Part shown: positions 4,438 through 7,547 of the stretch, one piece after another | Layout of the letters: every line of letters begins with the position of its first letter | Numbering within the stretch: position 1 is the stretch's first letter | Source: Pseudomonadota bacterium | GTDB lineage: Bacteria; Pseudomonadota; Gammaproteobacteria; Steroidobacterales; Steroidobacteraceae | Assembly (NCBI GenBank): GCA_018240265.1 | Contig: JAFEGC010000001.1 | Location: 1-39,918 of the forward strand | Length of the DNA: 39,918 bases | Direction of reading: 5' to 3' | Translations under genes and position numbers: made by a program | The notes under the pieces: model-generated | Seen by the model: the letters and a program-made list of their open reading frames with translations, nothing else | Databases searched by the model: none | What the model was told of the DNA's origin: nothing

Positions 4438-5661
4438 ATGGGCCCATTGGCGGGCGTGAAAATTCTGGATCTGAGCCGCGTGCTCGCGGGACCGTGGGCC
4501 ACGCAATGCCTGGCGGACTTCGGTGCCACGGTGTGGAAAATCGAAAAACCTGGGAGCGGCGATGACACACGCCAGTGGGGCCCGCCCTGGCTCAACGATC
4601 GTTGCGGGCGCGCCAGCGGCGAGTCCGCCTACTACCTGAGCGCCAATCGCGGCAAGCAGTCAGTCGCCATCGACATCAGTCAGCCGCGCGGGCAGGCGCT
4701 GATCAAGGTGCTGGCGCAACGGGTCGACGTGCTGGTGGAAAACTTCAAGGTGGGAGGGCTCGCGAAATACGGGCTGGACTACGCCTCGTTGCAGCCGCTC
4801 AATCAGAGCCTCATCTACTGCTCCATCTCGGCGTTCGGACAGGATGGACCGGAGGCCGCCGGCGCCGGATATGACGCCATGATGCAGGGCAAGGGCGGAC
4901 TCATGAGCCTCACCGGCAATCCCGAGGATGAGCCGGGCGGCTCGCCGCAGAAAGTGGGCGTGGCGGTGTGCGACCTGATGACCGGCATGTACGCCGTGGC
5001 CGCCATCCTCGGCGCGCTGTACGAGCGGCGCGGTTCGGGGCTGGGCCAGCACATCGATCTGGCGTTGCTCGACACGCAGGTGGCGATGCTCGCCAACCAG
5101 AACATGAACTTCCTGCTGTCGGGACAATCACCCAAACGCATGGGCACGGCGCATCCCAATCTCGTGCCCTACCAGGCGGTGCGGGCGCAGGACGGAGACT
5201 TCATGCTGGCGGTGGGCAACGATCGGCAGTTCGCCGACTTCTGCCGCGTGGCGGGGCAGGAGGCGGCGGCGAGCGACGTGCGCTACGCCACCAATTCGGC
5301 GCGCATCGCCCATCGCCGCGAACTGGTCGAGGACATCGGCCGCTGGTGTGGCGCGCACCCGCGCGCCTGGTGGCTGGAACAGCTCGGCCGCGCCCATGTC
5401 CCCTGCGGCCCCATCAACGATCTGGCAGCCGTGTTCGAGGAACCGCAGGTCAAGCACCGGCGCATGCGTCTGGATCTGCCGCACCCGCTGTCGGGCTCGG
5501 TACCGCAGGTGCGCAATCCCGTGCTGTACTCGCGCACCACACTCGACTATGGCGCGGCGCCACCGCTGCTCGGACAGCAGACGGCGCAGGTACTGGCGGC
5601 GCAGACCGGGTCGAGTCCGGAGCAACTGGCCGAACTACGAGCGCTGGGAGTGATCGGCTGA
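4438..5661 (+). CDS. Family III CoA-transferase (CaiB/BaiF type)
   Basis: N-terminus MGPLAGVKILDLSRVLAGPWATQCLADFGATVWKIE is the hallmark of family III CoA-transferases. GAGG SD lies 8 nt upstream of the ATG. Confidence 0.9.
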   Translation: MGPLAGVKILDLSRVLAGPWATQCLADFGATVWKIEKPGSGDDTRQWGPPWLNDRCGRASGESAYYLSANRGKQSVAIDISQPRGQALIKVLAQRVDVLVENFKVGGLAKYGLDYASLQPLNQSLIYCSISAFGQDGPEAAGAGYDAMMQGKGGLMSLTGNPEDEPGGSPQKVGVAVCDLMTGMYAVAAILGALYERRGSGLGQHIDLALLDTQVAMLANQNMNFLLSGQSPKRMGTAHPNLVPYQAVRAQDGDFMLAVGNDRQFADFCRVAGQEAAASDVRYATNSARIAHRRELVEDIGRWCGAHPRAWWLEQLGRAHVPCGPINDLAAVFEEPQVKHRRMRLDLPHPLSGSVPQVRNPVLYSRTTLDYGAAPPLLGQQTAQVLAAQTGSSPEQLAELRALGVIG

Positions 5662-6000
5662 GGAGCGGCGCGCCGTCTTGCGCGGTGCGTGCGCTGACTT
5701 CGGTTTGTCGGGCGCGGCGTATGCTGCGGCGGGTTCGGCGACCGCGGCGACTTTTGCCAGGGGACCCGTCATCGGGCCGGCCGGCATCGGTTCCGCGCTC
5801 TTACGTTCCATCACGCTGCGCAGATTGGCATCGACGCGCTCGCGCTTCTTGAACTCGGCGATTTCCTCACGATCCACCGCCACGTCCGGCGGCACCACGA
5901 ACCCCAGCCGCACCGAACCGCCGCGGATGCGCTGCACCGACACGACGATGTGCTCGCCGATGCGCAACTTCTGGCCGGCGCGCCGTGTGAACCCTTGCAT
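5635..6000 (-). CDS. CsrA/RsmA-family RNA-binding protein paralog with ~60-aa C-terminal extension
   Basis: The core [47 protein letters not shown] aligns by eye to E. coli CsrA ([47 protein letters not shown]). The start is uncertain. ATG 6000 has no clear SD. The track ORF instead begins at GTG 6102, which overlaps the stop of the upstream OYE gene (GTGA). The 3' end overlaps the convergent CoA-transferase by 27 nt. Confidence 0.7.
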   Translation of the reverse strand: [121 protein letters not shown]

Positions 6001-6098
6001 GCCGGCAAAGCTAACATGCGACTGCTCGTCCAAGCTACCGCGCGCACTACCCGCCCCACCGGAGTGAGACAGGCCGCGTGCGCCGAAGGTCGCGGCGT

Positions 6099-7547
6099 TC
6101 ACGGCGGCACCAGCCGCCGCTTGCCGTCCTTGGTCAGCATAAGCCCGGGCTCATCCAGCGCATCGCGATCCCACAGCTCGCAGGTCACTTCGCGATGCCG
6201 CTGATCCAGCGCTTCGCAATAATTCGTGTACTTGCACACCCGCACCGTGCCGCCCTGCCCGTCGCGCACCTTGCTAAACCAATCCGGGTCGGCCAGCGCC
6301 GCCCGCGCCAAGGCGATGATGTCGGCCTCACCACGCTCCAGGCTCGCTTCCGCCTGACTGAAGTGATGCACGCCGCCAGCCAGCACCGTCGGCGTGACGA
6401 GGCCCGCCGCACGGATCGCGTGCCGGATGCGCGTGGCCGGTTCGCGGTTACGGCCGAAGGGGCCGCGCGCATCCGAGTAGTACGAGGGCATGCACTCATA
6501 GCCGCTGCGGCCGGTATAGGGATATGCCGCCTCGCCCACCTTGGGTTGCGCGGCATCCTCGAACTTTCCGCCGCGCGACAGCGAGATAAAGTCCATGCCG
6601 GCGCCAGCCAGGCGCGCGGCGAAATACTCGGCATCCTCCACCGTGTTGCCGTCCTCGATGCATTCTTCCGCCAGCATGCGGCAGCCCACCGCGATGCGCG
6701 AACCGACCGCCGCGCGCACCGCCGCCAGCACTTCCAGCGGCAGCCGCACGCGCGCCTCGCGCTCACCGCCGTAGCCATCGTCGCGCGTATTGCGCGCCGA
6801 CAGGAACGAGGCCATGGTGTAGGCGTGCGCATAGTGCAGTTCCACGCCATCGAAACCGGCCTGCGCGGCGCGCTGCGCGGCTGCGGCGAAAATGCCGGGC
6901 AGGGTCTGCGGCAGATCGCGGATCGCCGGCACGTGCAGGTCGGTGACACGTTCGCGAAAGCCGTGTTGCAGCGATTCCCAATCGCGCGGGCTCAACGCCT
7001 GCCGCAACTCGTCGTCGGTGAGTGCGGCCAGGCGCTCGCGCACCAGCGCCTCGGGCGCATCGGCCGGCAGACGCAGATGGTCTCGATGCGAGGCCTCGAT
7101 GCGCAGATGTTGGCCGAGAAACTTCTCGCGCGATGGCCGGCGCCGGATGCCCAGGAAATCGATGATCTGGATGAACAGTCGCGTCTGGCCGCCGCTGGCT
7201 CGGCGCACCGTTTCCACCAGGCTCGCAAGTCCCGGCACGAAGCGGTCATGGCCGATGCGCAGCAGCGGACCGCTGGGCACGTCGCGCACTCCCGTGGCCT
7301 CGACCACCAGCACGCCGGGCCGGCCGCGCGCGAAGCGCTCGTACCATTGCAACACCGCGGGCGTGACCTCGCCTTCCTCGGATGCCCGCCACGGCACCAT
7401 GGCTGGCACCCAGGTGCGCGAGGTCAGCCTCACCGGTCCGACATCGACCGGTGAGAACAACCGCGAGCGCTGCGCCACCGCCGCATCGGGCCAGGGTTCG
7501 CAGATCGGCGCGTACTTGATACGCTCAGGTGGACGCCAGGTTGCCAT
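6099..7547 (-). CDS. NADH:flavin oxidoreductase, Old Yellow Enzyme family
   Basis: 482-aa ORF with OYE-type strings (GFDGVELHYAHAYTMASFLSARNTRDDGYGGEREARVRLPLEVL). C-terminal Cys triad CKYTNYCEALDQRHREVTC. The start overlaps the RidA 3' end by 23 nt. Confidence 0.88.
   Translation of the reverse strand: MATWRPPERIKYAPICEPWPDAAVAQRSRLFSPVDVGPVRLTSRTWVPAMVPWRASEEGEVTPAVLQWYERFARGRPGVLVVEATGVRDVPSGPLLRIGHDRFVPGLASLVETVRRASGGQTRLFIQIIDFLGIRRRPSREKFLGQHLRIEASHRDHLRLPADAPEALVRERLAALTDDELRQALSPRDWESLQHGFRERVTDLHVPAIRDLPQTLPGIFAAAAQRAAQAGFDGVELHYAHAYTMASFLSARNTRDDGYGGEREARVRLPLEVLAAVRAAVGSRIAVGCRMLAEECIEDGNTVEDAEYFAARLAGAGMDFISLSRGGKFEDAAQPKVGEAAYPYTGRSGYECMPSYYSDARGPFGRNREPATRIRHAIRAAGLVTPTVLAGGVHHFSQAEASLERGEADIIALARAALADPDWFSKVRDGQGGTVRVCKYTNYCEALDQRHREVTCELWDRDALDEPGLMLTKDGKRRLVPP

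Follow-up and report, generated by a model that had tools for sequence, protein, structure and literature searches.

A putative lineage-specific, diverged CsrA paralog beside an aryl-CoA operon in uncultured Steroidobacteraceae

In general, CsrA is regarded as a regulator of global scope, and the locus described here raises the question of what a gene of this family does directly behind an operon of aryl-CoA metabolism. The window, i.e., the whole stretch of 39,918 nucleotides (nt) that was analysed, comprises positions 1 to 39,918 of contig JAFEGC010000001.1 (assembly GCA_018240265.1, a Pseudomonadota bacterium placed in the Steroidobacteraceae). A first-pass annotation had pointed to a minus-strand open reading frame (ORF) at 5635-6102, which is indeed present, and had proposed that it codes for a CsrA-family paralog with a long low-complexity tail, acting as the last gene of the operon and possibly as a regulator embedded in the pathway and translationally coupled to it. 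The family assignment is borne out by our analysis, while the remainder is seen differently: with a probability of about 0.6, we regard the gene (csrAL, product CsrAL) as coding for a lineage-specific, diverged CsrA paralog which carries a disordered, weakly constrained tail, is preceded by a promoter-like element of its own and is not a component of the operon. The relevant features of the gene are listed here.

5635..6000, minus strand: csrA-like gene (csrAL) for a protein of 121 amino acids (aa), from ATG 6000 to the stop codon TAG at 5637-5635
5821..6000, minus strand: CsrA core, residues 1-60, with the beta strands and the C-terminal helix ending in ...RVDANL, supported by Pfam and by phmmer against the PDB
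5635..5820, minus strand: tail-coding region, residues 61-121, low complexity, net charge +6
5635..5661, both strands: tail-to-tail coding overlap of 27 nt between csrAL and the convergent CoA-transferase gene caiB
6001..6098, minus strand: gap of 96 nt between the stop codon of the upstream OYE-family gene and the start of csrAL
6006-6038, minus strand: bipartite motif GTAGCTTGGA-N12-TGTTAGCTTTG, conserved upstream of csrAL; its second half resembles an extended -10 element, TGtTAGCTT (hexamer 6013-6008)

As judged from homology and conservation, the gene is real and belongs to the CsrA family. The alignment to the Pfam model of CsrA (PF02599) that had been called for is significant, since the ORF scores 47.4 bits against a curated gathering cut-off of 27 (E 1.9e-12), and the values amount to 48.2 bits for the 121-aa form and 50-57 bits for the orthologues. 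A phmmer search against all PDB chains returned solely CsrA, RsmA and RsmE proteins, which align over residues 4-54 with about 40% identity (E about 1e-7), and the top 15 Foldseek matches in the PDB are likewise all CsrA/Rsm chains, with TMt values mostly of about 0.45-0.6. The core recognized earlier is therefore convincing, including the FTRR and VDREEI segments with their RNA-binding arginines; R44 recurs in 22/22 distinct orthologue cores. An AlphaFold2 (AF2) monomer model has a mean confidence (pLDDT) of only 59.7, as expected because CsrA folds as a domain-swapped dimer; it contains strands within residues 11-35 (beta2-beta4), a helix at 52-66 and nothing structured beyond. Ratios of non-synonymous to synonymous substitution rates (dN/dS) of 0.03-0.43 across 36 orthologue pairs, with 0.03 for the window and its closest relative (L005), indicate that the core is under purifying selection. 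By homology, the 60-aa core would be expected to bind RNA as a domain-swapped dimer, as is usual for CsrA.

The protein appears to be shorter than assumed by automatic gene callers, which arrive at the 155-aa form of the ORF (5635-6102, minus strand) starting from GTG 6102. The methionine encoded by ATG 6000 is the start in all 22 database homologues and in all orthologues recovered from genomes, and the 34-codon N-terminal extension opened by GTG 6102 is not conserved. In fact, it cannot be conserved, because in-frame stop codons precede the corresponding ATG in two other loci, namely a TAG 12 nt upstream in L005 and a TGA 6 nt upstream in L009. The comparative evidence thus corrects the gene model, as CsrAL is on these grounds a protein of 121 aa rather than 155 aa, and the start at GTG 6102 considered previously has to be given up. 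The same applies to part of the argument for coupling: the letters GTGA are present at 6099-6102, where the stop codon of the OYE gene lies, but with a start at ATG 6000 and a spacer of 96 nt behind the OYE gene they are no sign of translational coupling.

Transcription of csrAL would be separate from that of the operon, starting from the promoter-like element, and we consider a promoter of its own as probable from the arrangement of the upstream motif. This motif ends 7 nt before the ATG in the window, and the distance is 6-7 nt in the window, L005, L009, and L177. Both halves are found in a fixed register of 23 bp in the window and in L005, L008, L010, L012, L173, and L177, while L009 has the second half only; the motif occurs once in the window and is matched in 0/100 shuffled sequences. 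No Shine-Dalgarno sequence is visible before csrAL in the window, L005, L009, and L177, and together with the short distance between motif and start codon this suggests that the csrAL mRNA is probably leaderless. Read on the other strand, the first half of the motif resembles the -10 element (TACAnT) of an MFS transporter gene in those loci in which such a gene is oriented divergently, so that two divergent promoters would lie back to back in this region. There is no terminator between the OYE gene and csrAL: the gap lacks a hairpin with a U run behind it, and its predicted RNA fold is not more stable than those of shuffled controls (z = -0.49). Transcripts of the operon may therefore also extend into csrAL in the window.

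The relation of csrAL to other csrA genes was approached by a pattern-based scan of the genomes of 185,579 GTDB species representatives, from which the best 80 of 104 relatives were returned. Only five of these 80 are CsrAL orthologues (53-81% identity); they come from metagenome-assembled genomes (MAGs) labelled as Steroidobacteraceae or as unclassified Gammaproteobacteria or Pseudomonadota, and further carriers were found on some metagenome contigs. CsrAL forms 22 clusters among 5.8 billion proteins, and a profile search of 1.84 billion representatives at 50% identity retrieved three proteins of the paralog type at 168, 115, and 102 bits, clearly separated from single-domain canonical CsrAs, which score about 74 bits or less. 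From these searches, the carriers are confined to uncultured Steroidobacteraceae (Gammaproteobacteria), where they make up a small subclade. The other 75 of the best 80 represent a different and highly conserved gene, the canonical Steroidobacteraceae csrA, whose product contains MLILTRR in 75/75 cases and which lies in a locus of the order MatE, small ORF, GGDEF/EAL, csrA, AhpC/TSA, TonB_C (L013-L091, L178-L186). The alaS-csrA-tRNA arrangement is known from enterobacteria, and the earlier expectation that a canonical csrA should sit in this context and code for about 60-75 aa does not apply to this family: no tRNA gene adjoins the canonical Steroidobacteraceae csrA, and its products are 59-95 aa long, with 13/75 reaching 80 aa or more by tails rich in P, A, K, and G. 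The gene in the window lies outside this conserved csrA locus, between the OYE and CaiB genes.

The designation as a paralog is upheld by the similarity values. CsrAL passes the Pfam threshold but stays far below the cut-offs of the NCBIfam CsrA equivalogs TIGR00202 and NF002469 (37.5-38.2 bits versus 70.1-73), and the mean identity of the paralog cores amounts to 54% with the canonical Steroidobacteraceae protein and 40% with E. coli CsrA. At positions that vary little or not at all among the 75 canonical sequences, differences are fixed at E10Q, N26R, G28, Q29S, I32L, I34F, and A36V. Conversely, the paralog and the local canonical proteins share A8, R13, D43, A48, E49, K51, and R53, which are not found in E. 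coli CsrA, and these shared derived residues point to a duplication of csrA within this family as the simplest and most likely origin. The paralog seems to have diverged faster than the canonical copy, since its cores retain a mean identity of 75% and a minimum of 56% within a narrow clade, whereas the canonical proteins retain a mean of 86% family-wide.

The changes affect the residues in contact with RNA in a selective manner. The strongest RNA-binding defects of E. coli CsrA are caused by R44A, V42A, L2A, I47A, V40A, L4A, R6A, and R7A; L2 and L4 from one subunit, together with V42 from its partner, provide the surface on which the GG dinucleotide packs, and the R6-E46 salt bridge is structurally essential (PMC6692469; the roles of the conserved RNA-contact and structural residues are also summarized in PMC7366521). 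All 22 distinct cores of the paralog have R44, V42, and E46, and 20 have R6 and R7; I or V occurs at position 47, and V, M, or L at position 40. The hydrophobic residues L2, L4, and A36 of the GG pocket and the core, which are conserved across diverse CsrAs, are in contrast not kept: position 2 is Q, R, L, F, or W, position 3 also varies, L4 is replaced by F in 21/22 distinct cores (8/9 of the compared loci) and A36 by V in 22/22. Exchanges of this kind (L2A, L4A, A36V) lower the activity of model CsrAs, and few changes in C. jejuni CsrA are as damaging as A36V (PMC6692469). CsrAL would thus keep R44, V42, the R6-E46 pair, and R7 in a remodelled GG pocket (L2 variable, L4F, A36V), and with the hydrophobic pocket remodelled, specificity for GGA should not be assumed. 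The RNA preference or affinity of CsrAL probably differs from that of canonical CsrA.

The core is followed in the window by a tail of 61 aa behind the helix, containing 15 A, 8 P, 7 S, 6 R, and 5 K. An earlier description as an Ala/Pro/Lys-rich extension of about 60 aa is correct for the length and for the richness in Ala and Pro, but the enrichment in Lys is only mild. The same tail is found in P0001 and L092, which stem from independent assemblies, and a more distant relative (P0002) has the same last 27 aa in frame; the recurrence in independent assemblies argues against a frameshift or assembly artefact, which had been considered as its origin. The 26 orthologue tails listed cannot be aligned with each other, and their lengths (statistics on 25 of them) lie between 22 and 88 aa, the median being 38. 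From the per-codon stop frequency of DNA with 66% G+C, a median run-on of 41 codons is expected, so that the length distribution is as unconstrained read-through would give. The G+C content at third codon positions is 0.77 in the tail and 0.87 in the core, no Pfam domain was matched by the tail, and no secondary structure is predicted for it (AF2, pLDDT about 50-60). A net charge of +5 to +16 was calculated for 21/26 tails, many of them Lys-rich, and the near-neutral ones (-1 to +1) include those of L005, the closest relative of the window, and L011.

The end of the tail would be set by the neighbouring gene: it runs to the first stop codon, which lies within the antisense of the convergent caiB. 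In the window, the terminal SADH is the antisense of the caiB end ...VIG-stop, and the TAG of csrAL is the antisense of a Leu codon (CTA) of caiB. The two genes overlap by 21-27 nt in 6/7 measured loci and abut in L010; an overlap of 4 nt follows from the gene coordinates in L177. A C-terminal S(A/S)DH was considered as a functional tail motif and rejected, as it is the antisense of caiB ...GVIG-stop. The suggestion that the tail serves as a partner-binding module is hard to reconcile with unalignable sequences of 22-88 aa that are predicted to be unstructured and have their ends set by antisense caiB. In our reading, the tail is a disordered extension that is only weakly constrained, mainly in its composition, and it would add at most non-specific electrostatic affinity for RNA. 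Nothing specific on a basic or disordered CsrA tail was found in the literature.

The genes surrounding csrAL in the window were assigned as follows.

4438..5661, plus strand: CaiB-type family III CoA-transferase gene (caiB), convergent neighbour; Pfam CoA_transf_3, 400 bits
6099..7547, minus strand: gene of an OYE-family flavin oxidoreductase, located upstream of csrAL in the same orientation; Pfam Oxidored_FMN, 126.9 bits
7525..16750, minus strand: rest of the aryl-CoA operon, consisting of iorA, iorB, and genes for a flavoenzyme, an SDR, an enoyl-CoA hydratase, an acyl-CoA dehydrogenase, and RidA
16862..17365, plus strand: MarR-family regulator gene, divergent from iorA; NCBIfam matches of the HpaR/MarR type, all below their cut-offs

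The flavoenzyme of the operon matches the type of bifunctional salicylyl-CoA 5-hydroxylase/oxidoreductases (NF006101, 1216 bits versus a cut-off of 1078), and further NCBIfam matches of operon members are NF006179 (636 bits versus 348) and NF006107 (470 versus 330). The best NCBIfam match of CaiB is succinate-glutarate CoA-transferase, at 462 bits and thus below the cut-off of 750 bits. The MarR gene likely codes for the transcriptional regulator of the aryl-CoA operon. The intergenic region between iorA and the MarR gene contains a -35-like box (TTGACT), and in L173 a MarR gene lies inside the operon instead. Upstream of caiB, a palindrome AAGTGTGCG-N3-CGCACGC is conserved at 4337-4437 and in the equivalents of L005, L008, L011, and L012, as is a stretch GCGCATTGACCATAA...TCGAGGCG closer to the start codon; both are devoid of GGA and may represent an operator and an element of the 5' untranslated region, respectively. 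Nothing specific was found in the literature on this type of operon.

A view on the other loci shows that csrAL does not keep a constant position relative to the operon. It directly follows the OYE gene in the window, L005, L009, and L011, where it can be described as the last gene of the operon, as was originally done for the window. This description fails in the other loci: L010 and L173 have an MFS transporter gene on the opposite strand between the two, while in L008 and L012 they are separated by about 6 kb with genes for an ABC-2 transporter, a KAS III-like protein, and the MFS transporter. L177 has no OYE operon within 7 kb upstream of csrAL, and the opposite-strand MFS gene takes the place of the OYE gene as its neighbour; genes on the opposite strand are thus interposed in 5/9 locus types. 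Over the nine locus types, the steadiest neighbours of csrAL are caiB, which adjoins it in eight (not in L173), and a divergent MFS gene, which is present in five; the OYE operon is found within about 6 kb in eight. A survey of orthologous operons, suggested earlier to see if they carry the same paralog, was carried out by scanning metagenomes for the OYE protein and yielded 80 more distant operons (ACMR-SDR-ECH-RidA-OYE, 58-76% OYE identity); neither CsrA nor CaiB is encoded in any of them (0/80, with at least 500 nt downstream of the OYE gene available in 67 and at least 5 kb in 31). The variable position and the result for the distant operons suggest that csrAL is a clade-specific neighbour of the operon and not a component of it.

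Several observations weigh against this interpretation. The expression of CsrAL, its dimerization, and its binding of RNA are predictions from homology and conservation; beta1 and beta5 were not modelled as strands in the low-confidence AF2 monomer; and a generic sigma-70 scan called no promoter at the bipartite motif, which could be a transcription-factor site instead. The Lys enrichment of many tails is unexpected at 66% G+C and argues for some selection, so that calling the tail weakly constrained may underrate it. In the search for a canonical csrA in the paralog-bearing genomes, a profile of 16 canonical Steroidobacteraceae CsrAs gave 6252 matches in the protein database, 120 of them listed, and the three candidates looked up (P0069, P0086, and P0120) belong to other assemblies. 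Finally, the same MFS/CaiB/operon neighbourhood is kept in 9/9 locus types, which could reflect a local function.

Because csrAL stays in the same neighbourhood in nine distinct loci, a local regulatory role is still conceivable, in which CsrAL would be a post-transcriptional regulator that binds the leaders of the MFS, caiB, or aryl-CoA operon mRNAs and tunes the uptake and catabolism of an aromatic or organic acid. Such a role would agree with the persistence of the neighbourhood despite local rearrangements, with the convergent overlap of csrAL and caiB (0-27 nt), which forces overlapping transcripts, and with the remodelled RNA pocket, which would fit a specialized set of targets. However, the carriers are closely related and broadly syntenic (neighbouring proteins are 60-95% identical), so that the arrangement may simply be inherited and its persistence is weak evidence for a functional link, and it is absent from all of the more distant operons. 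Moreover, the caiB leaders are mostly free of GGA, and no conserved leader with multiple GGA motifs exists at caiB, iorA, or the MFS gene; only ordinary GGAs of the Shine-Dalgarno type were found upstream of caiB, iorA, the OYE gene, and the MFS gene. The lineage of the window has also lost the MFS gene and yet keeps csrAL, with the low dN/dS against L005 mentioned above, and the operon already has a MarR regulator. We therefore regard a local role as unlikely, and the specific version put forward in the first-pass annotation, a pathway-embedded and coupled regulator, is not supported in view of the start at ATG 6000, the promoter-like motif, the variable position, the 80 operons without CsrA, and the missing conserved GGA-rich leader. 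A bolder form of the idea would see CsrAL as a leaderless-encoded, pathway-specific CsrA which owes a new RNA specificity to its remodelled GG pocket (L4F, A36V, variable position 2) and its basic disordered tail and which switches the adjacent transporter, CoA-transferase, and aryl-CoA genes, possibly with an antisense interplay with caiB; this we consider decidedly speculative and less probable still.

Another conceivable function of CsrAL would be to modulate the canonical CsrA, either by forming heterodimers with altered pockets or by competing for sponge RNAs, with the basic tail raising the RNA affinity. The dimer-forming core is kept while residues recognizing GG are changed (L2 variable, L4F, A36V), A36V is known to lower the activity of C. 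jejuni CsrA strongly (PMC6692469), and most tails are strongly basic, all of which would suit a modulator. The substitutions fixed in the central strands (L32, F34, V36, S29), however, could equally block heterodimerization, the window yielded no sponge RNA and its sole GGA-dense stretch consists of apparent HipB operators (see below), and the proposal is inferential throughout; we regard it as improbable. That CsrAL is the sole csrA of its genomes, i.e., a housekeeping regulator that was relocated and diverged, has in its favour that none of the canonical candidates looked up came from a carrier genome and that the five carrier MAGs supply none of the 75 canonical matches among the best 80 of 104, but appears very improbable, because the canonical protein is near-invariant in 75 species while the paralog breaks L2, I3, L4, Q29, I34, and A36, because the cores of the paralog change more rapidly (mean identity 75%, minimum 56%) in a much narrower clade, and because the remaining 24 of the 104 GTDB matches could include canonical copies, the conservation pattern thus making a paralog much more likely than a relocated single copy.

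Returning to CsrAL as a diverged, lineage-specific paralog that stands apart from the operon, its relation to known systems can be described as follows. With E. coli CsrA, P. aeruginosa RsmA, and P. fluorescens RsmE, it shares the same domain at about 40% identity, the small core, and the C-terminal helix, as well as R44, V42, E46, R6, and R7; it differs from the canonical CsrA/RsmA proteins in the variable position 2, L4F, and A36V, in the predicted disordered tail of 22-88 aa, and in the lack of a Shine-Dalgarno sequence on a probably leaderless mRNA. Its closest relatives are the canonical Steroidobacteraceae CsrAs (54% core identity), some of which also carry P/A/K-rich tails; these are encoded in another locus, keep MLILTRR, Q29, I34, and A36, and evolve more slowly. 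Extra copies with longer C-termini are known from Pseudomonas (RsmH, RsmL, RsmM) and from S. meliloti plasmid pMBA19a (PMC7366521). Their extensions are predicted to be structured, with extra helices or strands, and many of these genes reside on plasmids or mobile elements, whereas the CsrAL tail is predicted to be unstructured and csrAL occupies a stable chromosomal context; no mobility genes are among the identified genes of the window, in which a few ORFs lack a Pfam match. In the CsrA proteins antagonized by FliW or CesT (B. subtilis, C. jejuni, and enteropathogenic E. coli), a C-terminal extension or a protein partner is involved (PMC7366521). The CsrAL tail is conserved in neither sequence nor length, which is the opposite of a binding surface, and no member of the FliW or CesT families is among the genes identified in the window, to which this search was confined. 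As variable extended C-termini and multiple CsrA paralogs have already been described (PMC7366521), CsrAL is, as judged from its sequence, a new and rare subfamily member of a known family.

Some further CsrA-type proteins differ from CsrAL in their architecture. Tandem CsrA-CsrA fusions of about 120-240 aa with linkers of 15-30 aa recur in metagenomes (P0023, P0024, P0146, P0147, and many profile matches in two stretches) and may be single-chain pseudo-dimers. In P0145, a protein of 2699 aa, 11 stretches match positions 16-39 of the CsrAL profile (95.5 bits), a pattern suggesting a repeat protein with similarity to the beta2-beta4 region.

With respect to RNAs, the window contains no Csr/Rsm sponge or other RNA family matching Rfam at its gathering thresholds, and no tRNAs. 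Its most GGA-dense stretch (38794-39050) was considered as a sponge RNA and rejected, as it is made up of repeated AAATCC...GGATTT operators upstream of hipBA. This toxin-antitoxin module of the hipBA type extends over 37223-39050 (minus strand) and comprises HipA (37223-38530; HipA_C with 173 bits, and Couple_hipA) and a helix-turn-helix antitoxin (38527-38793), preceded at about 38794-38960 by three to four repeats of AAATCC-N12/13-GGATTT that resemble HipB operators. Two ORFs, at 21378-23858 (minus strand, 826 aa) and 28254-28976 (plus strand, 240 aa), have a good coding signal and no Pfam match at E <= 0.001.

The immediate impact of these findings is modest, as they concern uncultured organisms. 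Nevertheless, the locus is a caution against reading adjacency in one genome as membership in an operon. Extra copies with altered RNA-contact residues show a re-use of the CsrA fold, and since L4F and A36V affect positions at which exchanges impair model CsrAs, yet the subfamily appears to be under purifying selection, CsrAL may represent a natural experiment on the specificity of CsrA.

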